Assembly (NCBI GenBank): GCA_050230475.1
Contig: JBFLGF010000080.1
Location: forward strand, 59,635-79,634
Reading direction: 5' to 3'
Source: Ancylonema sp.
Lineage: Eukaryota
DNA length: 20,000 nucleotides
Position numbers and translations under genes: made by a program. Below the pieces are notes generated by a model, which was not told where the DNA came from, searched no databases, and saw nothing but the letters and a program-made list of their open reading frames with translations. This document shows positions 1 to 18,900 of the stretch, piece after piece (the first letter of the stretch is position 1; every line of letters begins with the position of its first letter).

Positions 1-1
1 C

Positions 2-1642
2 CAGTTTGATGCAAAATAGTACACCGCTCATGCATTCTGTGAATACTACAAAGGGAAACACCACACCCGAGACCAATGTCAGAAACTTGCCAAGGCACAT
101 AACTTACTAACTCTCAGTACACCACCCACTGCAGATACTCAACCCAAACAAATCGGGTGGAAGACTCCTGAGACGCAGACAAGTTACCTGGCTATGCAAG
201 TAGACGACTTGGCACGCCAACGCGAATTCGAAAACATGTCGCACCAGACAACGGACTCTGAGGTAATTGACCATACCATTCCATGTCAATACCTAATGTC
301 CACCAGACGTTCGAAAAGAGAAAAAGAAACAAGCGGCTATTAAGAAACATACCCAATTTCATGTTCCTGTGGTCACTATCAGCTGTGATGCAGTTTGATA
401 CACCTGTGAATGAAACGCAAGTACCACCCTTGCCTGAAACTACACCAATTCATTATCAATCTGATCCTGAACCAAGTAGTTCTACCACTCCATATCCGGA
501 GCCACATCTAGAGACATTGCTTGAACAACGAACAAGAGAGGGGGAGGATTACGGTCGCAGACAGGGATACAGTACAAAGATGCCAGACTCATTTGTACCT
601 GATTTTCCCAACATTTTGGAAGCTGGCACTACAAACATGAACCAGTTCCATAATACTGCTGTCCCTCCACCCATGCCTCTACCACAAGCACAAGCTCTTC
701 ACGACATGCTTCATGACCATGTCAATATTTTGCGTGCACAACTGCAGATCGCAGAAAAAGCACGAGACAACGCGGCTGCACTTGTCAGTTCCATGCAAGA
801 ACCTGCAGCCCAATACACCACCAGTCAGGATTTCACCACTTCCTCAACACGAAACTCTCAGGACATCAAATACGGTATTGCACTCCTTCGCAACAACCGT
901 GGGGTGTTAAAAATCATGAATGAGAAACCAAACAAGGTGGTAGTCGACAGTGGTGCCATCAAAACCATGATTGGCAGAATCATGGCATCCAAACTTGGAA
1001 TCACACCAAACATGTTGAAACCTGGAACACCATACATCACCGCATCTGGTGTGCTCAATAAATCAGTCTCGGCAACCAAGGAAAAATTTTCCGATTACGA
1101 TTGGCAGCGGCACACCCAATCCAACCACCATTTATATGGAACTCCACATGTCTCCATCCAGAGAATTTGACGTCTTACTGGGCAATGAAATTCTTGGACC
1201 AATTGGTGGATACTCTGACCCTTGGCAACATCTATTTTTTTATAGGGCAGATTGGGAAAGAGGTGAGTTATGCCTAGCATCTTTACCACTCACAGTCCGA
1301 CATCAATCCAACAAATTAGAAGTGTATATGACAGATAGTGATTCACCATCTCTGACCCTCACACCTTGGGATCGTGCTGCAGCTCTCCAACAGAAGGAGA
1401 AGAAGGCAAAAGCAGACCAATCTACCAGAGACAGTGAATTTGCACGTGCTAGTCCACGCCGTTCCATTCAATTCGGCTCTCAACCAGAAGAGGCCGTCTT
1501 GCCTACCTTACCACCGGTCAAAGTGGCAGCACGTGATTATGAGGATAACTATCCACCTACACCTGGCTCCAAACGCATTGACCCTCCACAACGGACTATG
1601 GGGAAATACAAGAAACTGCGGATACACGTCACCAATCAGTAG
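2..1642 (+). pseudogene. Gag (CCHC knuckle remnant) - aspartic protease polyprotein remnant, frameshifted
   Basis: Frame +2, 38-79 reads CEYYKGKHHTRDQC (CX2CX4HX4C spacing, second Cys codon is TAC). Frame +1 has VVVDSGAIKTMIG (~937-975). After a frameshift near the A-run at ~1080, frame +2 has FDVLLGNEIL, the C-terminal retropepsin motif. Confidence 0.75.
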
Positions 1643-1756
1643 TACGCAAACGATTGTATGCTGAAATCGAGGACAAAATCAAGCGCAAGTGCATTCCCCA
1701 GGCACTTGAACAAGCAAAGTTTGTAGATTTCAACCAACCCATCTCATCTCGCAGCA

Positions 1757-3151
1757 GTGTGTGCCAAACATTCTTGCGCTGGTGGATTTGAAGAAACTCC
1801 TACTCCTATGGAATTAGATACATCAACCATTCCATCCTCAGACATTCCAACCAATCCTACATCTCGCCAACATCCTCTACTTGCTCCTGACACTCAGTTA
1901 CTTTCAACCATGCTTTTGGATACAGACCTTTCTCGAGCTACCAACGACACCTTCGAACCAGATGAGCTACACGAGCTCACTGAAGACGAATTGCGAGACC
2001 GATACCACGTTATGATCTCGCAACAGAATTTTTTTCGAACAGTCGTCCTCAAAGCAGCAAAAACAGAGGCACAGGCAACGATTACACACAGAATCACACA
2101 AGTCATCAACGAAAAAAAATCGGTGCTTCTCTGCAAGGATGTGCAAGCTGAACTTGACATCGCCGCAGCCCGGCAGGAAGAAAAGAGCAAATGGATCCAG
2201 CAGTATGATCTTCTAGTGGACAAACTGCATTCCAAATTGGAAGACAAGATGCAGGACGTGGTCAAACTTCACGCAACGCAAGAAGTTCGCCAAGAAGCTG
2301 CTCGTCTGGAACACAGGCTACAGATGGAAATCGGCAAAAATGTGCTGCGAGAAGAACAGTCGACAGCAATTCCCCTTTCTTCACCTACTAGCTCCGCACC
2401 CTCAACATCCATCAGTCCTGCACTTTCTCCTGTTGCAATCGCCCCTACCACCAGTGGGGGTGATACCATGGACACCTCGGAGGCCATAAAACCTCCTACA
2501 ACTGCTGCGCGCAAACGAGAGGCGTATTCCACTCAACCAATTTCCCCGAGTGAAGTACGTCCCGCCAACCGGCAGCGCATGCAGTGAGCATCACCAGTCG
2601 CGGCAACACATCGAGTAGAGACCTACCTGATGGATAGTCGGCGGTCTACACCTACAACTCCCAGCTCTTCATCCCAGCTACCCACGACGGAGGACCCAGG
2701 GCAATCCATCGTCAAAACGATGGAGAATGAAGCTGTGAAGAACAAGCCACTCGGTGCATACGCTCACCTGCGCGACCCCAGAGACAAAACCGATGTTGCT
2801 CAACGACTGGCACGCACAAACACCAGTGTGTCAGATTTTACCTTCCGCCAATCATTCGTTCGACCGGCTATGGCGCATCTCCTTAACATGGGCGCCATCC
2901 CGAAGGCCTTCTCCGGAGCACACCACAGCAAGTTGGCAGATTCCATTTACGCGCCAAGTATCCTGCATTACGGAGACGCGCACTACCAAAACATCAGGCG
3001 AAATGGTCAAATTTATATGCGGGAGGCACACCTCAAATTGCGGCATGACTACCAACCACTCCCATCATCCATCAAATGGTGTGGTCCTACGTTTCAAGGA
3101 GCATACGAACTTCCCCGAACCATCATTTCTACGCAACCAGCTTATGAGGCT
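1757..3151 (+). pseudogene. Unknown polyprotein segment (charged helical/coiled-coil-like region plus S/T/P-rich linker), in frame with the DNMT-like domain
   Basis: ORFs 1757-2587 and 2630-3409 are both frame +2, separated by a single TGA. E/K/Q/L-rich helical stretch at ~1960-2350. No recognised family. Confidence 0.45.
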
Positions 3152-4141
3152 CGAGGCCTGCACATTTACATCCCCTTCGGAAACCTGGAGATTGTGGAGA
3201 TCTGTCTTGAGGGAGGCTCCATCATGTCCCACGTCACGCCGCAGACGGACTGCATCCACACCAAAAATCGCTACCGCCAGAAGCTGCGACAACTGCAACT
3301 CCGCTTTCCAGACCAGCTGCCGAATTTTGCTATCGAACACTGCGATGTAATCCTGTCTACGAGCGTCACCGACACGACAACGGAGCAGATGGACGCACTC
3401 TTCCGTTAGAAAGGCCCCTTCGACGTGGTCGGTGGTAACAATCACACAGAGGTGGAGCGCACCTACACTCCTCTACGTGGCGGTCAAGACCGTCGTCTCG
3501 CTCCACTCCTCGCTGTCATCAAATGGATACACTACAACGCACGGCTCGCACAATTATACCCGGTGCTCATTTTTTACACCAACATCGGCACACCCGAGGA
3601 CCCTCCTTGGGTAGACGACCTATACCACGTGACGCGTGCATTCTTTGGCAACGCTGCGGAGCTCCAACCACTCCAGTTCTAAGGCCACGTCCATCGCCCA
3701 ACCAAGGTGTGGACCAACTGCATTACACCACGCGAGCTGGAACTTGCACAACCCAACAGGCAGATCCGGGAGCCGCTGCAGCACCTTCTGCAACCCGGGC
3801 ACACTGCACAAATCATGACTCTTCCCGACCTGGTGAACCACAAACTCAACCGCATGGGCAACCGCCTGGCTGTGTTTCCCACTGTGAGTCCTTATCTCTA
3901 GACATGCGACTATACGCTGCGATCGGATGGACGACCCGGCATCGGGATGCTGTTCGATGCACCATCTCAGCAGTATGTGCCACCTTCTCCATTCGAGATC
4001 GAGCAAGCCCTGGGACGACCTGTGGGCTACACAGCTCATCGACGTATCACCGACGCCAGGCGCGCCTCCCACCTGGGCCACATGATGGACGGACGACTCA
4101 TCATGTTCCTGGCGGAAATCCTTCAGGGCACCAAACCATAG
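3152..4141 (+). pseudogene. Retrotransposon-borne C5 cytosine DNA methyltransferase-like domain, catalytic residues substituted, three internal stops
   Basis: ORFs ending 3409, 3682, 3901 and 4141 are all frame +2. Read through, they give motifs in canonical order: I LHIYIPFGNL (3158-3187), LRQLQLRFPDQLP, IV GPFDVVGGNNH (3413-3445), VI FYTNI (3572-3586), VIII HRPTKVWTN (3692-3718), IX-X EIEQALGRPVGYT...RRASHLGHMMD (~3995-4090). These resemble DNMT3 GPFDLVIGGSPC and EMERVFGFPVHYT...RQRLLG. Confidence 0.75.
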
Positions 4142-4236
4142 GGATCACCCCTCACCTCGGAACAAAGGTATTTACCAACCTCAACTCTGGGGGGGAGGGA
4201 CACTAGATCCTCTGGTCAACAATTTTCAACCAAACC

Positions 4237-4631
4237 TGTGAGAGTCGCATTAGCGGCGGCTCTAGCTTATGGGAAAGCATTCATTCACAAACACAGATAC
4301 ACGCTGGAAGGGTTGGAAAGTGCAAGTATGAATATGAAGGAGTACAGGAGTTGATCAGGATGCATAATGAGCACTCCTGACGGGTTTAAATACTAGTCTG
4401 AAACTAGGGTCGGAAGTGATCTCGTTATAAAGGAAAACTGAAGAGCTAAGGGCAAACACTCGATACAAGGACAAACTGGAAGATAGGGCCTAACAAAGGC
4501 TTAACTAATGATGAGGTCTAATAAAAATAGGGCCTAATTACTGGGAGGCGACCGGGATAAATAGCTAAGAGCTAGCAAAGGTTAGGGCACTCTCTAGGGT
4601 AACCCTAGGGACAATAGAGAGAGTCCTAACA
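4237..4631 (-). repeat. 3' LTR of nested element (395 bp)
   Basis: tgtgagagtcgc...gagtcctaaca; aligns end to end with 7024-7411. Confidence 0.93.
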
Positions 4632-4647
4632 GGACCCCCCCCTCAAG
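4632..4647 (-). other. Polypurine tract of nested element
   Basis: Minus strand reads GAG + G-run + TCC directly before the TGTTAGG start of the 3' LTR. Confidence 0.8.
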
Positions 4648-5338
4648 GGCGCGGCGTGCCGCGTAAGCAGGAGAAGGGCAGAGGCCGGGGCGGGCTCCGG
4701 GCGGGAAAAATGAGCCCAAGACAGGCGGGGCTCCCGACGGGGGAGAAATGATGGCGGGGCTCAAAGGCATGGAAAAGAATGAGCCGGGGATCGTAAGGGA
4801 AATAACGGGCTCCCGCGAAAACGAAAGCGGGGGGCCGTCGGATGGACGGCTCGATGCAGAGGACGAAAAAACTGGAAATCTGACACTGACGATAACGACC
4901 GTCCGATCTGTATGTGTCAGAAACTGGCGTAGGATAGGATGGCGCCACGTTGACGAAAATGGATGATGGTGCGATTGCGAATGCGCTGCTGGCAGATATG
5001 AAAGCTGTGTAGGGTGGAGATGCTGGCTGAGGAATCCGAGTGGACGGCGGAGATGGAGATAGGTTGCCAAAAAACTGGGCGAGCTGCGAAACGCCGATGC
5101 GGAGGGACACTGCCGAATTTCGAGGTTCCAGAATGTTCCGAGTACGGCCAGGATGCAGGTCCGGGCATTGACAGTTGGAGATGAGGCCACGTCGAGCTGG
5201 ACGAGCCGAAATCTGGAGGCTAGGACCTCGATCCCCCGCAAGACCCCGCAAGCCTGGCGGCTGGAAGGCAGGCCAAAACCTGCATCCCGCACGTGCGACG
5301 GAGCTAACTAGTGCCGGCAAAGGGCTCCGATTTCGCGA

Positions 5339-5414
5339 AGCGCTAGTAGTAGAGCACGGGCATATCAGATTAGACGAGCGCTAGTAGTAGAGCACGGGCA
5401 TATCAGATTAGACG
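5339..5414. repeat. Perfect 38-bp tandem duplication
   Basis: agcgctagtagtagagcacgggcatatcagattagacg at 5339-5376 and 5377-5414. Confidence 0.95.
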
Positions 5415-6193
5415 GCCGGGTTAGGGAATGGGACGTGGGAGGGGAGGGGGGGGGGTAGTTAGGAAAAACTCCATCGTGGCGGGGAGTCAAACTGGGAATT
5501 TGGGCTGGAAATGGGAACGGGTGGGGAGCCTGAACCTGAAATGCTCTGGGGGGATGGAGTAGAACTGGGTAGGGGATTAGGACAATGCGCCTTGCACGGA
5601 GGTAGTCGCGTGCAGCGGGGAGATGGGGGGAACTGGCATGACAGCAGGTCATGGTTGCCAGGTAGGCGGCAGCGCGCAAAGCAGCGGGAACGCTAGCTGA
5701 TGGCGTGGCGCGATGGGGCGGGCGTGGCGGTCCGAGCTCGGACTGCAGAGCCGGGCGGCAGGCGTACGGACGCCGAGGTCCGTGGGGGTGGCCAGTGGTC
5801 GGATGTGGGGAGTACCATTGCGTGGATCGGGGGGAAACAGGGGGGACAAAAAAGGCAGTAGGACGGGAGGGGAGGGTGGGAATGGGAAAGACTGCAGGTC
5901 GGGAAGGAAAGCCTGCAGACTGTGGCTGGTCTGGATTGCGTTGGAGAACACAGCGGGAGCGGAGTGAGCGACAAGGCTCACTGGATCTGGAATAGCGACA
6001 GGAGTAGTCGTAATAGCAACAGATGGACCAGCTTCTGGGGTATTAGGAGCTGGCAGCAAGCAGGTAGCTACGTCAGCCGGAGCAGGAGTGGGTGTGTCAA
6101 TGGCAGCCTGCAACTTGGCTATAAGCTCCAAACACACTGCAGGTGCCGTGCCATAGCGAGAAGTAGGAGGGGGAGGAGTGTATTCTGCCCATT

Positions 6194-6904
6194 TTACAGT
6201 AGAAACTGCTGGTATGAAAGTACGGACAGGCGCCAGGGCAGGAGTAGGGGTGGGAGCAGATACAGCGACAAAGTTCGCTGGAGCAGAGAAATGGCTGCAG
6301 GAGTAGTTGCCGCACTGATAGTTGTGGGAGCAGAAGGCTTGGTAGCTTTGTTAGCGGCTAGGATAGGAACAGCAACGTGAAGAGCTGCAAAGGGGGGACT
6401 GACTGTCGCTGAAACAGATGGAGCTGGAGCTGGCGTAGGAGCTGGAGCTGGCGTAGGAGCTGGAGCCGGAGCTAGGATAGGCTGAGGAGCGAGAATAGCT
6501 GCAGGGGTAGGTACAGAGTCTGCGGAGCAGACAGGTAGGATAGTTGCGATAGGGTAGACGGAAATTGGGGCAGCTGGTAGCACTTGGATCTTGTTGAGCT
6601 GCCACTTCAGAGTAGTACACCACGAAAGTATTTCAATTGGAGTTGGTATAGCTGCAGCTTTGCTTGTGTAGGCACGGAGTCTGTCCGTCAGAACTTCGAT
6701 GAGAGCTTCGCGGAAAATGTTGAGGTCTTCCAACCATGGATCTGCCGCGTCTACGTAGGGGCGATAGTAGATTAGTTCCCTGTCTGTATCCTCCAGTTTT
6801 GAACTCAGTTGTTGTAACTTTTGAAGATCGTCGTCTTGGACAATCCACGGGTCTTGGATCGATAGATTGAATGGTTGCCGAAATGGCTGGATTGATGGAT
6901 TCAT
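6194..6904 (-). CDS. Hypothetical 236-aa protein of nested element (gag position; helical N-terminus, Ala/Pro-rich tail), possibly degenerate
   Basis: ATG about 110 nt downstream of the PBS on the element's sense strand. APAPAPT repeats come from an 18-bp tandem at ~6420-6470. Similar A/P/T-rich coding continues in ORF 5649-6137. No recognised domain. Confidence 0.45.
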   Translation of the reverse strand: MNPSIQPFRQPFNLSIQDPWIVQDDDLQKLQQLSSKLEDTDRELIYYRPYVDAADPWLEDLNIFREALIEVLTDRLRAYTSKAAAIPTPIEILSWCTTLKWQLNKIQVLPAAPISVYPIATILPVCSADSVPTPAAILAPQPILAPAPAPTPAPAPTPAPAPSVSATVSPPFAALHVAVPILAANKATKPSAPTTISAATTPAAISLLQRTLSLYLLPPLLLPWRLSVLSYQQFLL

Positions 6905-7009
6905 GGATGAATCGATGGACTCGTCCCGAAATGGGTGAAGGGTATCAAAACCCCAGTGTGATTCACAGTGAAGAATACTACAAAAAACTCAACTGGAAAA
7001 ACACACTCA

Positions 7010-7021
7010 GATCCTGATCAA
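7010..7021 (-). promoter_or_regulatory. Non-tRNA primer-binding site (TTGATCAGGATC), complementary to LTR-internal sequence 7136-7147
   Basis: Starts 2 nt after the 5' LTR CA end, does not begin with TGG, and is an exact 12-bp inverted repeat of 7136-7147. Confidence 0.8.
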
Positions 7022-7023
7022 AG

Positions 7024-7411
7024 TGTTAGAGTCGCATTATAGCGGCGGCTCTAGCTTATGGGAAAGCAATTCACAAACACACATACACGCTAGAAGGGTT
7101 GAAAAGTGAAGTATGAATATGAAGGAGTACATGAGTTGATCAGGATCCTGAATGAGCAATCCTGAGGGTTTAAATACTAGTAACTAGGGTCGGAAGTGAT
7201 CTCGTTATAAAGGAAAACTGAAGAGCTAAGGGCAAACACTCGATACAAGGACAAACTGGAAGATAGGGCCTAACAAGGGTGTAACTAAGGATGAGGTCTA
7301 ATAACCAAAATAGGGCCTAATTACTAGGCGACCGGGATAAATAGCTAAGAGCTAGCAAAGGTTAGGGCACTCTCTAGGGTAACCCTAGGGACAATAGAGA
7401 GAGTCCTAACA
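7024..7411 (-). repeat. 5' LTR of nested element (388 bp) with TATA-like TATTTAAA (7176-7169)
   Basis: tgttagagtcgc...gagtcctaaca; terminal inverted repeat TGTTAG/CTAACA. Confidence 0.93.
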
Positions 7412-8208
7412 AAACCTGTCAAACCACACGGCCGGAATAAACCAAATTCCAAAGTCAACAGTCAAAACCAAACTCCGGGCAAACCCAATACAACCAAAAG
7501 TCAACACACCAATTTAGGACCAAACATGGTATCGAAACCCGGTCCAAGACCACGACCCACAAATTCAACCAAACCAACCAAATTAAGGCCTAACAACTCA
7601 ACAGTCAAACTTGATTCTTCAGGTCCACGACATTCTGGTCTCCGGTCCTTACCTGGTCAACGAAGTAACACTCGGAATCAGCCTCTAACCATCCCAGACC
7701 TACCACACATCACTTGGATATCAAACCAACCAAGACGATAATCTCATTCCACATCTCATGCTGCCTCTTACCATACGAGGAAACAACACCAAAAACACCA
7801 TGAACATTTCTCTTTCATCAACCACACTTTTCAATACCAACCATCGGAACCTCCTTTCGTACCACCTATACAACTACATTTTTCTTTATCACCATATTCT
7901 ATCTCTCAGCATACCCGATAGTCTACCAAACTTGCTGGAAGTACCATCTTCCCTAGATTATGAACAAATCGTTTATACATATTTGGATGATGATACCATT
8001 CCTACCTATACTCAGGGATCTGCACCTAACCCTGATGCATTGTTCGCATTATTAAGTACACGATTACCTTCTACTGGTGATCTTGTCTTACCTTCACCTT
8101 CTAGTTATGCCACTAAACCACGGCATACTTTTGTCATGTTCTTGTACAACCTCGTCTGCTGCTGTTTCCCAGCTCCTTCACAAGCGTTCCACAGCTCGGG
8201 GGGGGGAG

Positions 8209-9158
8209 TGAGATCAGCCGGACCACCAAGTCCACCTGAGACCCTTCGATCACCTACGAACATCATCCCAACCCAGTCAACATCATCGCTACTCCACCGC
8301 GAGCATTACCACATGCATCATTATGAGAAACATCCGGGAACAAAGGCGACAAAGTATGAGGAATATCAATTTAGGCGGCCGACTCCAAACAACACTTCAG
8401 CTTTCATGACGCTAGAGATCGCTAAGGCGAAACCCCTCTAGATTGTTCACAAACCCCTCTAGATTGATACTCTGCCACAACGAGAATATTCGATATAACG
8501 ACTTTCTAGAATTAGTACTTTACTAGAAACATAGTGAAGTACGAAATTTGTACGACTCGAAAATAACGCGTGGCGTATTTTCCGAAGTCTAGAATCTAGC
8601 AGTTTCAACAAATAGCTGCGTGTCGATTTTGTCGATTTTGTTTAAATCACAAGTCTCTTTCGACTTGTCGATAATCCCGGCGATTAAATCCAGCAGAGAA
8701 ATATCTCGCGCCATTTTCATCGGAGCGCCGAGATTAATTGTAATGTTCTAGAAGCCAGCCTGTCGCTATATCTTCGACACTTTAACTATAGTTAACTCTG
8801 CCGGTTAGCACCGCGCAACAACTTTGTGATAAAAGAAAAAGTGTACTTTCAGATCTGCCAGCTTCCGCTGTCAGATTGTGATGTTAAGAAATCTCCCAAC
8901 AATCTTGTGTGTTATCTGAATCCTTTGCAATTATGTGAATATTGCATCCCTTCTTCGCTTACGCAACTTCGCAACGTGCTCGTCTTCCGAAGCCTGACGG
9001 CTGTTAACCTTGATAGTCTGCACCAGACTATCTTGTTTGCTTTATAGTATTTTCATAGACTTTTGTACTATAAACCATCTGTTAGCTCGCCCTCGGTGTT
9101 AAGTAGTGAATTTCACCAGACCGCTGAGACGTGTGATAGATATAATATTGATATCTCA
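8209..9158 (+). repeat. Probable 3' LTR of the outer gypsy-like element (~950 bp)
   Basis: Preceded by G9AG purine tract (8198-8208). Begins TGAGAT and ends ATCTCA. Its first ~190 bp recur at 9188, starting at the same TG. The right boundary rests only on the inverted terminus. Confidence 0.7.
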
Positions 9159-9187
9159 GTAGAGACTCAATTTGCAATACTACTTAG

Positions 9188-9370
9188 TGAGAGCAGCCGG
9201 ACCACCAAGTCCACCTGAGACCCTTCGATCACCTACAAACATCATCGATACCAACCCAGTCGACATCATCGCTACTCCACCGCGAGCATTACCACATGCA
9301 TCATTCTGAGAAACATCCGGGGACAAAGGTCACAAAGTATTAATTTAGGCGGCCGACTCCGAACAACACG
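9188..9370 (+). repeat. Truncated second copy of the same LTR (5' part only)
   Basis: tgagagcagccggaccaccaagtccacctgagaccc...ggccgactccgaacaacac aligns with 8209-~8396 with small indels. Confidence 0.88.
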
Positions 9371-10542
9371 TCACCCGTGCCTCCACGATTATCGATGCCA
9401 CCACCTCTGCCATAATTGAAACATTTTTGTCGAGTTGACCACTTAGCACAGTTCGCACCAACTTCTAGAGGCCTCACCATCTTTGACAGCTTTTTATTTT
9501 TTGTCATCCAGCTCACCCATTCCCATCTGCCCCCAGATCCAACTCATTCCAGGTGCTTCTTTCTGCCCGTAGTACAACTTTTCCAGGATACTGTACTTTG
9601 TCCTAGACATGCCAACGAACAACGCCATCACCTGATCTTTTGCACTAACAGGGAATTTTTGATGCACACACTCTCTGATGATCAACAGAAAAGTATTCTT
9701 AATGTCTCGGACTTGCATCTTCTCGTCGAATCTGAAAGAATTCAGCTTTTCTTTTGCGATCTGTTGAAGTTCTGGCGTCAGTTTATCATACTCCTCTGTA
9801 AGATAGTACCACATTGCCTTTGGATCTCGCTCAAATTGTTCAAGAGATGTTGCGATGTCATCACTGACAAGTTGCATGAGTAGCATAACCGCCTTCTTTG
9901 TTGTTTGCGGAAGCTTTTGACGTCTACTGTGTGCTGATCCATCTCTGCTTCATCTGTCACCCAGTATTCATCATCACAACAAGTTGTAACCTCATTTGGT
10001 ATTGTCTTTGTTCCTTTGCAGATCTCAAGGAACTCGGCATCATCAAGAGTAGCTAAGGCCTTAGATCTCCATGCTCGAAAGGTAACTTTGTCTCCGTCCA
10101 GAATGCAGTACCATGCTATGATACCACCGTGAGAACTTTTTCCTGCCATCGATGCAAGAATAAATTTCACTTCTCTTAATCTCTTTGAATCAAAAGGAAC
10201 ACGTCATTACACACATCGACACAACAAAAGTGCAAACTTGAAGTAGAAAGTGTTGATTACAGAATTCTGCCTGCAAGCTCGGACCCACTACAATCGAGTG
10301 TTGCCTGGTCAAAGATTTACTCATATCGAAAGTACTTGGTCAACTGCCAATCATATCTAAGCATTCTGCCACATCATCTTATTCTTATCGATACCTGTGC
10401 CAGATGGCCAAGCATGCCGACGAAATCATTGTAACAAGGACATCGGCCTGCATTTGCTGAATAATGACAAAACAAAAGCTAATTTCCCGGAAATATTAAA
10501 ATCGATATAACGACAAAAGTTCACAGCCCCTAAAAACTTACT
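9371..10542 (-). mobile_element. 3'-truncated Ty1/copia element: 5' LTR plus frameshifted gag, same family as 10848-14818
   Basis: Reverse complement aligns with 10848-~12020. Gag ORFs 9778-10170 and 9494-9886 closely match 11366-11587/11454-12377 (ERDPKAxWxYLTEEYDK, QKEAPGxSWIWGQMGM). Confidence 0.88.
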
Positions 10543-10847: not shown

Positions 10848-11226
10848 TGTTAGTTTTTAGGGGCTGTGAACTTTTGTCGTTATATCGATTTTAGCAACAC
10901 CGGGAATTTAGCTTTAGTTTTGTCGTTATTCAGCAAATGCAGGCTGCAGGCAGCCTGCAGGCCTGCTGCAGGCCGATGACCTTGTATCAATGATTACTTG
11001 GCCATCAGGCACAAGTGTCGATAAGAACAAGTTGATGTGGCAGAATGCTTAGATATGATTGGCAGTTGACGAAGTAGTTTCGATAGCAGTAGATTCTTTG
11101 ACCAGGCAACAATCGACTGTACTATGTCTGAGCTTGTTTGCTGAATTCTGTAATCAGACTTTTCTACTTCAAACTTGCACTTTTGTTGTGTCAACGTTTG
11201 TAATGACGTGATTTGTCGATTCAAGA
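10848..11226 (+). repeat. Copia 5' LTR (3' boundary uncertain, between 11188 and ~11226)
   Basis: tgttagtttttaggggctg... matches 14475-14818 up to 11188; no clear PBS seen. Confidence 0.75.
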
Positions 11227-11262
11227 GGTTGTCTGAGAGAATTGTGCTTTATTCTTGCATTG

Positions 11263-14200
11263 ATGGCAGAAGAAAGCACTCACTATCAGAGCACGGTACT
11301 GCATTCTGGATGGAGATAAAGTTACCTTTCTCTTCAAGCATGGAGATCTAAGGCCTCAGCTACTGTTGATGATGCTGAGTGCCTTGAGATCTGCAAAGGA
11401 ACAGAGACTATTCCAACTGAGGTTACAGCCAGATATGATGATGAACACTGACCATGAAACAAATGAAGCAGAAATGGCGCAGTATACACTTGATGTCAGA
11501 AGCTTCCGCAAAAGATCAAAGAAGGCAGTCATACTACTCATGCAACTTGTCAGTGACGACATCGCTACATCACTTGAAACAGCTTGAACGAGATCCAAAG
11601 GCGATATGGGACTATCTGACAGAGGAGTATGACAAGGTGTCTCCAGAACTTCGACAGATTGCAAAAGAGCTGAACTCTTTCAAGATCGATGAAAAGATGC
11701 CAGTCAGAGAAATCAAGAATGCTTTTCTGTCGCTCATCAGAGAGTGTGTACATCAAAAAATTACAGTCAGCGCAGAAGATCAGGTGATGGCATTGTTTGC
11801 TGGCATGTCAAGAACAAAATACGGCATGTTGAAGAAGCTGTACTATGGGCAGAAAGAGGCACCTGGGATCAGCTGGATCTGGGGGCAGATGGGAATGGAT
11901 GAGCTGGACGACAAGAAAGAAAAGGATGTCAAAGATGCTGAGGCACTAGTTGTAGAGGCAAACTATGCTAAGTGGAGCCAAGGCACAAAGGTGGTGGTAT
12001 CGACAATCGTGGAGGCAGGGGTACATTCAGGGGGTATTCAGCAAATAATCGTGGAATCAGAGGTGGTCGTGGAGGCAGAGGTGGACAGTGGATCAAGTGG
12101 AGGACATTCCTGCTATACTTGTGGAGAGACAGGTCACAGCAGAGACTGCTCCAAGAAAAACGAAGAATGCAAATATTGTGGAGCCATTGGTCACGTGGAA
12201 TTAACATGTTTCGACGACAAGAAAAAAAACGAAGCTCCACGAATGCAGAGAAAGGGGGTACGCAGTGGGAGAAAAACAACTTTCGTTGGCGAAATCGAAT
12301 CGATGAGGGGAAGAGCTGTGGTCATGCAGAAGCTATCATCGCTGAAATCTAATCTATGGAGGAAATGTTGCAGATAATGATGATCAGAGAAAGATTTCCT
12401 TTTCGACGATGGTTCCAGTCACCATTCCTGTGGACAAAAAAATCTTTTCAAAATCCTCGAAGACATTCGACACGAGGTCATCATGCATCATCTGGTCGGA
12501 AGTGTGCGAGTGAAGGAGTGGGGAACAATTGAGCTGAATACTGAGGGAGAGTGTGGAGGAGTAACACTCAAGAAATGTTTGTACATTCCTGGGATGCGCA
12601 TTAATTTGTTCAGCGGTCAGAAAGCAGAGAGCAGGGTGGTCTTACACTTGCAGTGGAAAAGCTGGTGGCATCATTCCAGTTTACAACAAATCTGGACAAC
12701 AAGTCTGCACTCTCTGCAAGAAACATCGACAGGTCGAAAAACTATAATCTGCACACTGGTTCGGCTTCAGCAACTTAGTGAAGGGGAAGCTCTTGTAGCT
12801 GCTGTCGAAATCAACCTCCTGCACACAAGACTTGGGCATGCAAATGAGAGAGTGCTCAAATGGCACGACAACATATTGTACGAGGACTAAAAAGAGGCAT
12901 CTCAAGAGTTCTGCGAAACTGTGAAGGGTGCAAGCTGGGGAAGGCACACGACAAACCTCATCCTCGACGAGAAGTTGGTGAAGGAGAACAAGGCTGCCTG
13001 GGAAGTGTGTCGGTGGACTTGGCAGGGCGTTCAATCCAGCATCAATAGGGGGAGGAGTGTACAACATGGTGCTCGTCGATGAATACAACCGAAAATCCTG
13101 GGTGGAAATACTTCGCAGCAAAGATGATGCAGCTCCTCAACTGAAACAAGATCGGACTGGGAAAATGAGTGCGCTGGCTTGGCTTGGTGTGTTAGTTGGA
13201 TGGAATCCCGACACTCCTTGCTACCGAGTCTGGGATCCTGCAACGAACAAAATACACAACGTTGGCACTGGTCATGCAGACTTCGATGAATCTGTCAAGC
13301 AAAGCTGGTGGAGGAGACACAAAATTGGCAAGAAGGCACGAGTGCATGAGCCAGTCAGTTGCAGAAACAAAAATGTCATGGCCAGATCTGGATGCAGCTG
13401 ATCAAGGAGCAGGGGGTAGTGTTGGCCTCGGAGGGGGCATTTCTGGAGGTGGGCAACCTGCCTATGGCGATCCAAATTCTGTCGATGAAGAGAGATCCCT
13501 GATGTTGTGGGAAATCCATTGCCACAGCTTCCGAGATCCCCTCTTCCTCAGAGTGCAGATCTTCCAAAACTTGTCAGCAATTATAGTGGAGGCGATGAAG
13601 ACGAAAGATCATCTGGAAGCTGGTCCAGAATGGTATCCAGATGATGCTACTCCTCTTTAGCTGGGTGTAAAATTTTCTGCAAACTGTGAATCTGCTTCTG
13701 AATCCGCTGGAATAGAGGGTGTGGGCTACAAGTTTGCAACGGGCAGTTTGCTGCATCTCACTTCTGGAACAAGACCTGATCTGGCAGCTGCTGTTAACTC
13801 CTTGTGTCGATACAGTCAGCAGCCAGGGGACAAGCATTGGGCAAGCATTGGGAGGGGGTAAAGAGAGCTCAAGGGAACTGTCAATTTAGGGCTGATGTAT
13901 AAGAAAAGAGGTGATTTGCCAGTCATCGGTTACTCAGATGCTAGTCATGGTGACGACGCCGACACTAGGAAGGGGAGAACTGGCTATGTCTTTCTTAGTG
14001 GAGGAGCTGCTGTGAGCTGGAAAAGTGGTCTCTTGGAAACAGTCACACACTCAAGCTGTGAAAGTGAGTATTTGGCATTGAGTGCTGCTGGAAATGAGGC
14101 CATTTATTTGAGCCAGATGCAACAGGAGTTGGGTATTGATGGGGGGGGTGTGCTATTGCTGGGAGACAATGAGAGTTCTTTGAATCTTGCTGAGACTCCT

Positions 14201-14413
14201 GTTTTTCACAAGCGCTCCAAACACATCGAGATCAAGTATCATTCCATTCGAGAGAGGGTGTTCAAGAAAAAGATCAGTCTACAGTTTGTCAAGAATGAAG
14301 AGCAGGCTGCTGATATGTTGACAAAACCAGTAGTGTCTGTCAAGTTGAAGAAGAATTGTGATCTGGTGGGGAGCTGGTGTATTAGTGAGTTTTTTGTCGA
14401 CTTGTGTTTGTAA
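11263..14413 (+). pseudogene. Copia gag-pol pseudogene (multiple frameshifts; integrase core and most of RT deleted)
   Basis: Zinc knuckles CYTCGETGHSRDC and CKYCGAIGHVELTC (~12111-12210), protease FLFDDGSSHH (~12396-12425), LLHTRLGHA and CEGCKLGK, VDLAG/LVDEYNRKSWV, RT tail TRPDLAAAV (~13770), RNase H GYSDASHG...SSCESEY...KHIEIKYH...ADMLTK (13895-14413). Confidence 0.92.
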
Positions 14414-14474
14414 AATCGATATCGTTGTGGTTATCGTTTTTGGAGGGGGAATACAAAAGTACCCAGGAAGAGGG

Positions 14475-14818
14475 TATTAGTTTTTAGGGGCTGTGAACTT
14501 TTGTTGTTATATCGATTTTAGCAATACCGGGAATTTAGCTTTAGTTTTGTCGTTATTCAGCAAATGCAGGCTGCAGGCAGGCTGCAGGCCGGCTGCAGGC
14601 CGATGTCCTTGTTTCAGTGATTACTTGGCCATCTGGCACAAGTGTCGAGAAGAACTAGTTGATGTGGCAGAATGCTTAGATATGATTGGCGATTGACGAA
14701 GTAGTTTCGATACCAATAGATTCTTTGATCAGGCAACAATCGACTGTAGTACTAGGTCTGAGCTTGTATGCTGAATTCTGTAATCAGACTTTTCTACTTC
14801 AAACTTGCACTTTTGTTG
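14475..14818 (+). repeat. Copia 3' LTR, truncated on the right
   Basis: Begins TATTAG (TG>TA) after the PPT. Similarity to the 5' LTR stops abruptly after ttttgttg at 14818. Confidence 0.9.
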
Positions 14819-15786
14819 CACGCTGCGGTTAGCACCCTTCACAAGTTGGCGAGGCCAGGGTTCGTGAGGGGGCTGGAGGGTGGCCTGGTTGGGGAGCTGA
14901 AAGTCTGCCGTGGCTGCAAGTTGGGCAAGCCGCTGGCGAAATCCCACCCGCAGAAGGATCCAGCCTTCCGAGCAGGGAAGCCACTCGATCTCGTTCACGC
15001 TGACTTGGCAGGCCCGATCAAGCGTGCCACCTGGGGTGGGAAGCTCTACGTGTTTGTTCTCATCGACGATTACAACAGGAAATCATGGGTAATTCTGCTA
15101 AAAGAACAAATCAGATGTCGAATTGAGGGTGAAGGAGTGGACAACGCTGGTAGAGCGCAAATCCGGTTATCGGGTGGGGCGGTTCCGTAGTGACAACGGG
15201 GGGGAGTTCGTGAAGCAGACGTTGAAGGACTGGTTTCGTCTACGTGACATCACCCAAGAGTTCACCCCCCCCCGTACTCCACAGGCGAAACGGGGTCGCC
15301 GAACGACTCAATCGTACCCTCCAGGACCGAGTCCGTAGCATGATGACGGAGGGTGGGCTCGGGGGCGGAAGCTGGGGGGAGGTTTTTCTGGCGGCATCGT
15401 ACCTCAGGAACCGGGGACCGGTTACTGGATTGAATCTGACGCCGCAAGAGCTGTGGAGTGGGAAGAAGCCGACCTCGGCGCACCTGCGGGCCTACGGCTG
15501 CAAGGTGTATGCGCCCATCGAGAAGGGTGACAGGGCAGGGAAGCTCGGGAAGGTGTTCTGGGAAGGGGTGCTACTCGGTTACTCGGACAGCAGCCCTTCG
15601 TACCGGGTCTGGGATCCGGTGAAAGGGAAAGTCTACAATGTCGGCGGAGCAGACTTCGATGGGACGTGGAGGGGGGCTGGTGGAGGCAGCAGCTTCTTTT
15701 GCAGGGTGACTACGTGGCAGAGCCTGAAGAGATCCCCCAGGACTGGGCGGCAGATTCTGGCGCAGGCGCAGGCGACGGGGCACGCT
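14819..15786 (+). pseudogene. GC-rich integrase fragment of a second, related copia family (two frameshifts)
   Basis: HAAV...CRGCKLGK, LDLVHADLAGP, LIDDYNRKSWV, FRSDNGGEF, NGVAERLNRTL, HLRAYGC, YRVWDP across ORFs 14768-15190, 15123-15338 and 15244-15789. Confidence 0.9.
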
Positions 15787-15791
15787 TGACA

Positions 15792-15978: not shown

Positions 15979-18900
15979 CTAGTCAACACTCAAGTCAACT
16001 AGAGGGAGACCTAGATCCTCCAACGAGGAACGTATGCTATCGACATCTGTAACTATGAGAATGGTTTGTTTCTCTGGATGCAAATGACGTCTTGCAGCCC
16101 GTAAAACGTCCTCTGCACTCGTCTCTTCGATCCCTCTCTTGTATCGAAAGATGAAGTCTTGATCGATTCCAAACAGCTCATATGTCATGATACGACTCAA
16201 TTGGGCACCCCTGCAGAATCAACATTCTTAACTAGCTAGAGTCAAAGTCAGCGCTTAGATTTACCTTCAACTTTCCTCTCGCAATCCGCGTCAACATGTT
16301 TCAATGCTCGTAAAACATTCTGCGACTGCGAATGAGCTCATTGGACCTACGACATGAAACCACACAAAGCTTTGCCCAATATGTGCGCCAAAAGACCTGT
16401 ATCCTCTTTTTTCCCGTAAAGATCCGCTTGAATGACGATTGGGAAGATCGACTTACGAGTCAGCAAAGTTGAAGACGAAGGAGTTGAGGGATGAATCTTT
16501 GGCTTGCGACAACTCCTCTGCATGAGCCACGAGCCAAGTCCCCATGAGCCCATAGGCCATGAACCATGGCCCGACACCATCCTCTATCATCCTCCATCAT
16601 CCACCTACCTCAACTAGCAAACATTCCAACAAGTGAGCCCAAAACTCTTTCACTTTTCCACTTCTCATCTTTGAACCCAAACCAATCACCCCAACCTCCA
16701 CCCCTCGAAACCTACGCCCTAGTTTGCCCTCCCTCCCCCCCCTACCCTGCGTGGGCGGCTGAGTCCTCACGTCTCTCATCACCCTCTGCACCGCTGCCAC
16801 AAACTGTGGGATGGAGCTCACGCGGCTCTCCCCCCCTGCCACAAACGCCCCCTGAAGGAGGCGGGAGGCAGGATGTAAGACAAGGATGGGTGACCACCGT
16901 GGTGTGCCTTTTAGTAAGATAGACCCCCCCCCTCACCCTGTGCTCCATGGCTGGGGCCCACCCGCCGGAGACAGAGTAGGCCAGACCTTCTCGGGAACGA
17001 ACCTGGGGGGGGGGCACATCCCAAGTTTCCATCCTGAGAAGCGGCTACCCCCTAAAAATCGAAGGGTCACGGTTCATGGGTCTCACCTCATCGAACAGCC
17101 TCCCCCCGAATCCGTTCAGCTCCGAGTTGAGCACATCCAGAGCAACCAGATCAGGATCGTCCAGAGTGGTCCCAAGCTCCGCCATCCGCACATAGCTGCC
17201 AACCACCACCAACCACTGCCTACCACCAGTCACCACACTTCCTAACGAATAGTGAGATGGCAATGCAACGAAGATACAAACAGCTGCCCAGCCATCTGCT
17301 TCTAACGCATTCGTGATGCTCCCACCCACCCACCCCTGCGTGAGCCCTGGGCGGTTGATAAGGTAGACACCCGGTGGGCTCCAACCGCTGCCCTCCTCCT
17401 CAAGGGGTGGGGGGGGTGGTTGGGAAGGATGCCCTCCACTCCACCCTCCCATGGAAGAGAGAATGAGGTCCTGGGCGGTGGTGGAGTCGAAATCGCCCCA
17501 CAGCCCCAACCCCGCCTCATTGGGACGGTACACGGCGTCGTGGAAGGCGACGAGATCGGATTGTGTGATGGCCTTCACATCTGAAGCCTGGGGCACTCGG
17601 GCGTAGGGACTGGTGGGACCGTACAAAAGCTTGGGCACCTCTCTGCTCGCTATCCCTCCAGGCTGCAGGAGAGGAGGAGAGGACAGACAGACAGACAGAC
17701 AGGCAGATAGGGGAAGTGAGGTGGAAGGTGGGAGGTGCAGGGGTGGAGGGGTGGGGTGGGGTGGGGAGTGGTTACGTCATCATTGCGTCGCGCTAACACC
17801 CCTAGGAGTTGGCGGCGAACGAGGTCCAGCTTGTCTTGGGGCATGGCGGGGTGAAGGACCACTGGAGTACCAGGGGAGCAACACAGAGTGGAGTGGGAAT
17901 GATGGGAGAGGAGGGGGAGGATGGGGAGGAGGTCCGTCCGTACCGTCCGTGAATATTGGGAACACCTCCTCAAGGTCCTCCCGCAGGCAGCGGAATGCCA
18001 CACTCATCTCGGACACGCCCGCACCAGACTCGATCCGAGCAGCCATGGACTGACAACCCACAGACCCAACAACCAACAAAACGATGAACAACATCCACCA
18101 CGGCCATCAACGATACTCCCACGAACCGCTGCAAGGAATCAGTGGCGACGAGTTTTGATGAAAGGGGAAGGGAGAGGATCCATGATTGCTGCAATATGAT
18201 TCGATTTGATTTGATTTTGTTTGTGAAGGAAGGCTACCGTACCTCAAGGCGGGCGTTGAGTGCGTCTCCCGGGAGGGCGTCGGTTCCGCCCCCGCGCTGG
18301 ACCGCCCCCGTCACTGCAGCCAAACCGACCTACAGCAAACAGGGCGGATGATGCGGGGGAGGCAGGCAGTGTGTGTGTGGGTCGCAGTTGGTGTGTACTT
18401 TCGGATTCGACGAGTAATTTGACGTGACAGCTGGCATGGCTTCTCGTGATGAACACTGGAAGCGAACATGAAGTTGAATTAAGTTCCAGGTTCAGGTTCA
18501 GGTTCCGATTCTGTACCTTGCCTGCTGGGTCGGCCTTGCCACCTCCTTTTACAAGAATCTGGCCTCCAACCTTCAGAGACCAAACACACCACAAACTGAT
18601 GGTAAACGCTTGAGAGAGAGCGGTGCAGATTCCTCGACATGGATGTGCCATTTTTTAGCAAAAAGATGGAGGCAACCACCGGCCTCGCCACACACAGAGG
18701 ATACAGTTGCTGGAGGGGACAGGTATACGTCTCCTCACCAGGCCAAGCTCGTGATCTTCCAGGAGGAGCACCTTGAGGCCATTCGGCAGGACCACCTACA
18801 CCATACGACCAGAGACCATTTCGGCAGCATCAGAACGCGGACACAGAAGAATATCATGATAATAGTGTACTCCTACGCCGCAAGGGAATGACGAATCTAG

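Follow-up and report, generated by a model that had tools for sequence, protein, structure and literature searches.

Predicted self-priming in a very high-copy, non-autonomous family of LTR retrotransposons

The 20,000-nucleotide stretch of DNA analyzed here (the window) carries on its minus strand a complete LTR retrotransposon of 3,175 bp. Self-priming is predicted for this element, because its PBS exactly complements 11 nt of its own LTR, starting 30 nt past a TATA box. The best reading of these features is Tf1-like priming of reverse transcription by the 5' end of the element's own transcript, to which we assign a probability of about 0.7. Directly observed are the anatomy of the element, the complementarity and how rarely it arises by chance, and the very high copy number of the family that carries it.

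The coordinates of the element and its parts are given in Table 1. Two direct TG..CA LTRs, a short TSD, a PBS candidate and a polypurine tract (PPT) are all present, these being the structural features by which LTR retrotransposons are recognized. Both LTRs start with TGTTAG and finish in CA, with the common pattern TGTTAG..C(T/C)(A/C)ACA, and their bounds (7411-7024 and 4631-4237) are each one base wider than in the repeat-finder output. In the alignment of the 5' and 3' LTRs, 370 of 383 aligned bases are identical (96.6%) and 17 nt are gapped; three of the 13 mismatches fall within positions 7147-7150. Judging by the LTR divergence and the indels, the window copy is old rather than young, and, with its old LTRs and a frame-shifted ORF, it is probably dead itself. 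The PPT is also found in other contigs of the family (loose ends at 7411). Within the internal region, about 38 nt (CGTCTAATCTGATATGCCCGTGCTCTACTACTAGCGCT, present twice) are duplicated in tandem at approximately 5339-5414 (minus strand).

Table 1. Features of the element in window coordinates.
Feature	Position	Strand	Basis or remark
Upstream TSD copy, GGTTT	7412..7416	-	sequence reading
5' LTR, 388 nt, TGTTAG...CTAACA	7024..7411	-	aligned to 3' LTR
TATA box, TATTTAAA	7169..7176	-	sequence; putative promoter function
Predicted self-primer, ATCCTGATCAA, where the transcript is predicted to begin (its first 11 nt, start of R)	7136..7146	-	exact PBS complement
Predicted hairpin in U5 (5+3 bp), with its end 5 nt ahead of the PBS	7027..7053	-	MFE and centroid
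PBS, TTGATCAGGATC, preceded by a CT spacer (7023-7022) after the LTR-terminal CA	7010..7021	-	7021-7011 pair with the family 11-mer
Internal region, 2,392 nt, C-rich	4632..7023	-	no gag/PR/RT/RH/IN
Polypurine tract, GAGGGGGGGG, 3 nt ahead of the 3' LTR	4635..4644	-	sequence reading
3' LTR, 395 nt; contains a TATA box and, at 4361-4351, the 11-mer	4237..4631	-	alignment
Downstream TSD copy, GGTTT	4232..4236	-	sequence reading

The triplet TGG is absent from the 39 nt that follow the 5' LTR, and therefore the canonical site for a tRNA 3'-CCA primer is absent as well. The exact complement of the PBS, GATCCTGATCAA, is located inside the 5' LTR at 7147-7136 (12 nt, 100% complementary, 114 nt apart), where the first T of the TATA box precedes the 12-mer by 29 nt and its A by 30 nt, the distance in the 3' LTR being 31 nt. 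In the 3' LTR, CATCCTGATCAA is found at 4362-4351, with 11 nt kept (4361-4351) and a C preceding them. In all these respects our analysis agrees with the earlier note, which had described a PBS without TGG at 7021-7010, 2 nt past the 5' LTR, an exact complement at 7147-7136, 29-30 nt downstream of TATTTAAA, and 11 nt retained at 4351-4361 in the other LTR, with a difference at the next base upstream; the coordinates check, and pattern and repeat searches led to the same places.

The complementarity is rarely produced by chance. The sequence after the LTR, taken at offsets 0-5, was matched to dinucleotide-shuffled LTRs, with the match allowed anywhere in the LTR and no position relative to the TATA box demanded; under these settings 4 of 20,000 shuffles contained a complement of at least 11 nt, and 3 of 20,000 one of at least 12 nt. 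The rule published for plant elements (Neumann et al. 2019, PMC6317226, as worded in the part of the paper available to us) calls a self-primer where at least 10 bp, starting 0-5 bp past the 5' LTR, are complementary to the 5' LTR. The complementarity described here starts 2 bp downstream of the LTR and comprises 12 bp in the window copy and 11 bp in the family.

Another possible primer is an RNA of the host (half a tRNA, a fragment from inside one or some other small RNA), in which case the copy of the sequence in the LTR would be unrelated to priming. Half-tRNA priming does exist in the plant-lineage copia elements Osser, Bryco and Bianca, according to the available part of PMC6317226. Here, however, it would require two coincidences, namely a non-canonical primer and an exact 11-12-nt copy of its site at TATA+30, and the shuffles already put a complement of at least 11 nt anywhere in the LTR at 4 in 20,000. 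Moreover, Rfam yields no match, tRNA included, on 4200-7450 at E up to 10, and there is no TGG. Priming by a host RNA is, in our estimate, improbable.

The predicted structure of the RNA is consistent with Tf1-like self-priming. In the 157-nt leader RNA (7146 to 6990) both the MFE and the centroid structures pair nucleotides 1-11 with the PBS, the folding energy being -36.6 kcal/mol (z -3.27, equalled by 1 of 200 shuffles), and the predicted primer-PBS helix closes a multiloop of three hairpins. In RNAs of 142-448 nt that start at 7146 or 7147, this helix has a mean pair probability of 0.79-0.96. Folding of the first ~150 nt of the RNA had been suggested in the earlier note, and the 5' end is indeed predicted to pair with the PBS. 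The commonest indel of the family (2 nt at 7038) lies in the loop of the predicted U5 hairpin.

A stable helix could also have been selected for some other step, such as leader folding for packaging, dimerisation or translation control, with priming achieved by other means. The predicted stability of the helix fits this explanation, and long-range leader structures are common in retroelements. On the other hand, the paired segment occupies exactly the place of a primer 3' end, 2 nt past the CA of the LTR, and there is no other PBS candidate, as TGG is absent from the 39 nt. We regard selection for another step as a poor prospect.

Parts of the stretch are matched by public runs, among them two from 'organism A' and metagenomes with the labels glacier, ice and sediment. 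Recruitment at 80% likeness onto 6900-7450 gave 1,211 contigs from run X1, 53 from X2, 11 from X7 and two from the RNA run X10; the count of zero for run X5 is not evidence of absence. The family is of very high copy number and is seen in the samples of other studies too. The two RNA contigs cover 7189-7414 only (U3), and one of them runs from the PPT into U3.

At position 7147 the family base is C in the sense orientation (142,196 of 144,382 word depth in 37 contigs of X1; 131.1 of 131.1 in four contigs of X2), in agreement with the 3' LTR of the window copy itself, and position 7150 likewise differs from the window in most copies. Since the majority base of the family at 7147 differs from that of the window, the family-wide complementarity is 11 nt, ATCCTGATCAA; the G at 7147 stretches the pairing to 12 nt in the window copy, and this twelfth pair is private to its 5' LTR. 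The family 11-mer is preceded by C, which yields an initiator-like C|A dinucleotide 30-31 nt past the TATA box. A distance of about 30 nt from the TATA box is the usual geometry of TATA-driven transcription start.

Among the variants listed, with a share of at least 5% or at least 1%, none falls inside the PBS (7010-7021) or the 11-mer (7136-7146), though the listing at 1% omitted 7147 and 7150, and sites near the end of the stretch can be missed. Variants flank the LTR 11-mer at 7135 (18,130 of 263,602 depth, ~7% in X1), 7147 and 7150. As the family is young and little varied overall, with about seven listed substitution sites across ~160 nt, the absence of variants from these 22 nt is weak evidence and only weakly informative of constraint, being expected by chance in about one case in three (an estimate); the variant data show conservation, not covariation.

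Within the family, no part of the LTR varies more than the region from the TATA box to the 11-mer (7147-7184), which shows a dip in depth and several insertion variants at 7181; the 11-mer adjoins this region downstream, yet has no variants among those listed. Subfamily variants, seen in the loose-end consensus, retain the TATA motif as TATTTAAA or TATTTATA amid differing neighbouring bases. Single contigs from X1 and X2 fit the stretch up to 7029, and then unlike sequence replaces the LTR (breaks at 7026-7029; 156 nt in X2). These contigs may stem from a rearranged copy or from a sister family whose LTR body is different, and the 11-mer copy is absent from the 30 letters seen of their divergent sequence.

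A chance match in a dead element, made easier by the palindromic cores TGATCA and GGATCC (a palindrome takes up 6 of the 12 nt) in an old and degenerate window copy, is highly improbable, as its frequency in shuffles is 2 in 10,000 for at least 11 nt even before the TATA+30 position is demanded, and the same 11-mers are present in hundreds of contigs of the family, from runs of at least two studies.

The claim of the earlier note that the element self-primes has gained support from the geometry, the start at TATA+30 with its C|A dinucleotide, the 11-mers free of variants among those listed, and the predicted fold, all of it at the level of sequence. Under Tf1-like self-priming, transcription would start at the A of the C|A dinucleotide (7146), and the 5' end of the RNA would fold back onto the PBS. 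The RNase H of a helper element would then cut after nucleotide 11, and the freed 3'-OH would be extended through CT, U5 and R, giving minus-strand strong-stop DNA, which would be transferred to the 3' R. With its 2 nt, the CT spacer would supply the two bases past CA that integrase usually trims off. A start upstream of 7147 would be compatible with this scheme as well, because the decisive point is the 3'-OH that the cut produces. An autonomous element, either Tcn1-like Ty3/gypsy or TAR-like Ty1/copia, would have to supply Gag, reverse transcriptase/RNase H and integrase in trans.

The internal region is open in several frames, but none of the 17 stop-to-stop frames of at least 75 aa in 4597-6988 (both strands; 4 + 13 frames) matches a Pfam family. 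The first ORF, 6904-6194 (minus strand), is a frame-shifted remnant of a family-specific ORF that continues onward in other frames. Its sole relative among 5.8 billion clustered proteins is P0002, which is 94% identical and, by this similarity, clearly another copy of the element's own family; P0002 stays in frame at the point where the window copy shifts frame. A full HMMER pass of the ORF against 1.84 billion representatives again returned P0002 alone. No longer proteins sharing the N-terminus of the ORF were found, although such a search is weak evidence, and there were no feature-based look-alikes in the Atlas and no detectable similarity to Gag. The AlphaFold model of the ORF has a mean pLDDT of 44.6, too poor for a structure search. 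Since the frames contain no Pfam family and P0002 is the only relative, we conclude from these protein comparisons that the element is non-autonomous and that its ORF, if genuine, is an orphan.

The earlier note had likewise described a non-autonomous LTR element, which is borne out by all 17 frames, and had made it dependent on a Tf1/chromovirus-like helper, a claim for which our analysis offers no support. Neither protein searches with the ORF nor scans of contig collections revealed an autonomous partner or sister families, and exact patterns of the LTR, of U3 and of the LTR end with the PBS gave 0 loci in metagenome, genome and viral contig collections. Membership in the Tf1/sushi-Tcn1 clade is defined by RT-RH-IN phylogeny and the chromodomain, and the element encodes none of these; nor does it have the copia-order polyprotein that defines the TAR lineage. 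A helper from the Tf1/sushi-Tcn1 clade or from the TAR lineage is possible, with a chromovirus and a copia-type helper equally plausible, because self-priming in plants is predicted in both Tcn1 and TAR elements.

The element is nested in a larger repeat on the plus strand, which occupies 1-4231 and 7417-9340. Upstream of the element this repeat has a frame for a gag-type aspartic protease at 271-1170 (PF13975, E 3.7e-05, below the curated cut-off), and it also contains long frames without any Pfam family. After a G-run at approximately 8198-8209 comes a unit of about 980 nt, the first 150 nt of which recur at 9186-9340 (repeat families D4/D7); the unit and its recurrence are possibly an LTR and a second, truncated LTR.

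Fragments of copia elements lie downstream of the element. A copia gag fragment at 9494-10203 (PF14223, E 1.1e-10) is on the opposite (minus) strand and hence represents another nested insertion. A copia-type element on the plus strand (10848-14818) has gag, Pol_BBD, integrase SH3 and RNase H-like frames and LTRs that are 94-97% alike and also start with TGTTAG; the likeness of its 3' LTR ends at 14818, and there the integrase frames of a second copia start (14762-15789). It shows no TGG-type PBS after the shared part of the LTR, with TATCAGAGC about 95 nt further on, and no self-complement of at least 9 nt. This element was considered as a control with a tRNA PBS and rejected, its 3' LTR being truncated and a clean TGG-type PBS being absent.

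An exon-like frame at 17045-17776 (minus strand) encodes a Peptidase_M16_C domain and is the one fragment of a host gene in the window. Among named proteins, those labelled Spirogloea, Mesotaenium and Closterium are its best relatives, with 38-44% identity, whereas an Atlas search with the fragment yielded no informative taxon. These relatives, the sole hint in the window at the broad group of the host, point to a zygnematophycean-like alga.

To our knowledge, self-priming has been proven only in fission-yeast elements, and in plants it has been predicted for two lineages, Tcn1 and TAR. The mechanism itself is not new, nor is it rare in plants. The earlier note had called it uncommon among described plant-lineage elements, which is overstated: in the available part of the survey by Neumann et al. 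2019 (PMC6317226) self-priming is predicted for 12% of the plant elements covered, being dominant in Tcn1 chromoviruses (83% of 1,500) and in TAR Ty1/copia elements (89% of 203). Our literature search found no self-priming PBS in non-autonomous or LARD elements, nor in elements of Zygnematophyceae, a statement on which the per-element supplement of PMC6317226 may bear.

One may speculate, although we consider it unlikely, that a zygnematophycean-like alga, from the algal group nearest to land plants, harbours an active self-priming lineage through which a passenger without genes has risen to very high copy number. In that case no self-primed non-autonomous LTR family would have been described before this one, and, if the helper is Tcn1-like, the Tcn1 elements of mosses and club-mosses would have been inherited vertically from streptophyte algae and not acquired from fungi. 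Apart from this speculation, a very abundant non-autonomous family with a clean 11-nt signature in an alga near land plants would extend the range known for the mechanism, and would show the signal to work in trans, the RNA of the passenger being served by the RNase H of the helper. It would also provide a handle on the debated origin of moss Tcn1 elements (horizontal transfer or inheritance).

In its general organization the element resembles LARD, TRIM and TR-GAG elements, in which LTRs, a PBS and a PPT are present but pol is not, and which are mobilised in trans, often to high copy number. The size ranges of TRIM and LARD elements bracket 3.2 kb, and unlike either of them the element, with 3.2 kb and 388-nt LTRs, sits between the two.

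With the TAR Ty1/copia elements (Houba, Osr-1) it shares, as far as the available part of PMC6317226 goes, occurrence in the plant lineage, predicted self-priming and 5-bp TSDs, but the TAR elements are autonomous and 5.2-10.9 kb long. The Tcn1-clade chromoviruses are similar to it in the same three respects, according to the same part of that survey, and differ in being autonomous, 5.5-9.4 kb long and equipped with a chromodomain. In the available parts of PMC6317226 and of Novikova et al. 2010 (PMC2864245), Tcn1 elements are reported from mosses and club-mosses only; Tcn1-like elements were not found in the algae tested (PMC2864245), and no Tcn1-like gene was seen in the window.

The closest parallel in priming is with Tf1 and Tf2 of S. 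pombe and Tj1 of S. japonicus, although membership of the element in their clade cannot be claimed. These are autonomous fungal chromoviruses with experimentally proven self-priming, whereas the element described here, a non-coding derivative predicted to self-prime, lacks pol and belongs to a plant-lineage alga. In the accessible text on Tf1 (PMC7175516), the transcript's initial 11 bases anneal to the PBS and RNase H cleaves between bases 11 and 12, and Tj1 is interpreted likewise as self-primed in the accessible text of PMC4600332. As in these elements, the PBS complements the start, here predicted, of the element's own RNA in place of a canonical tRNA site, the 11 nt that pair equal the length in Tf1 (PMC7175516), and a multi-hairpin structure closed by the primer-PBS helix is predicted.
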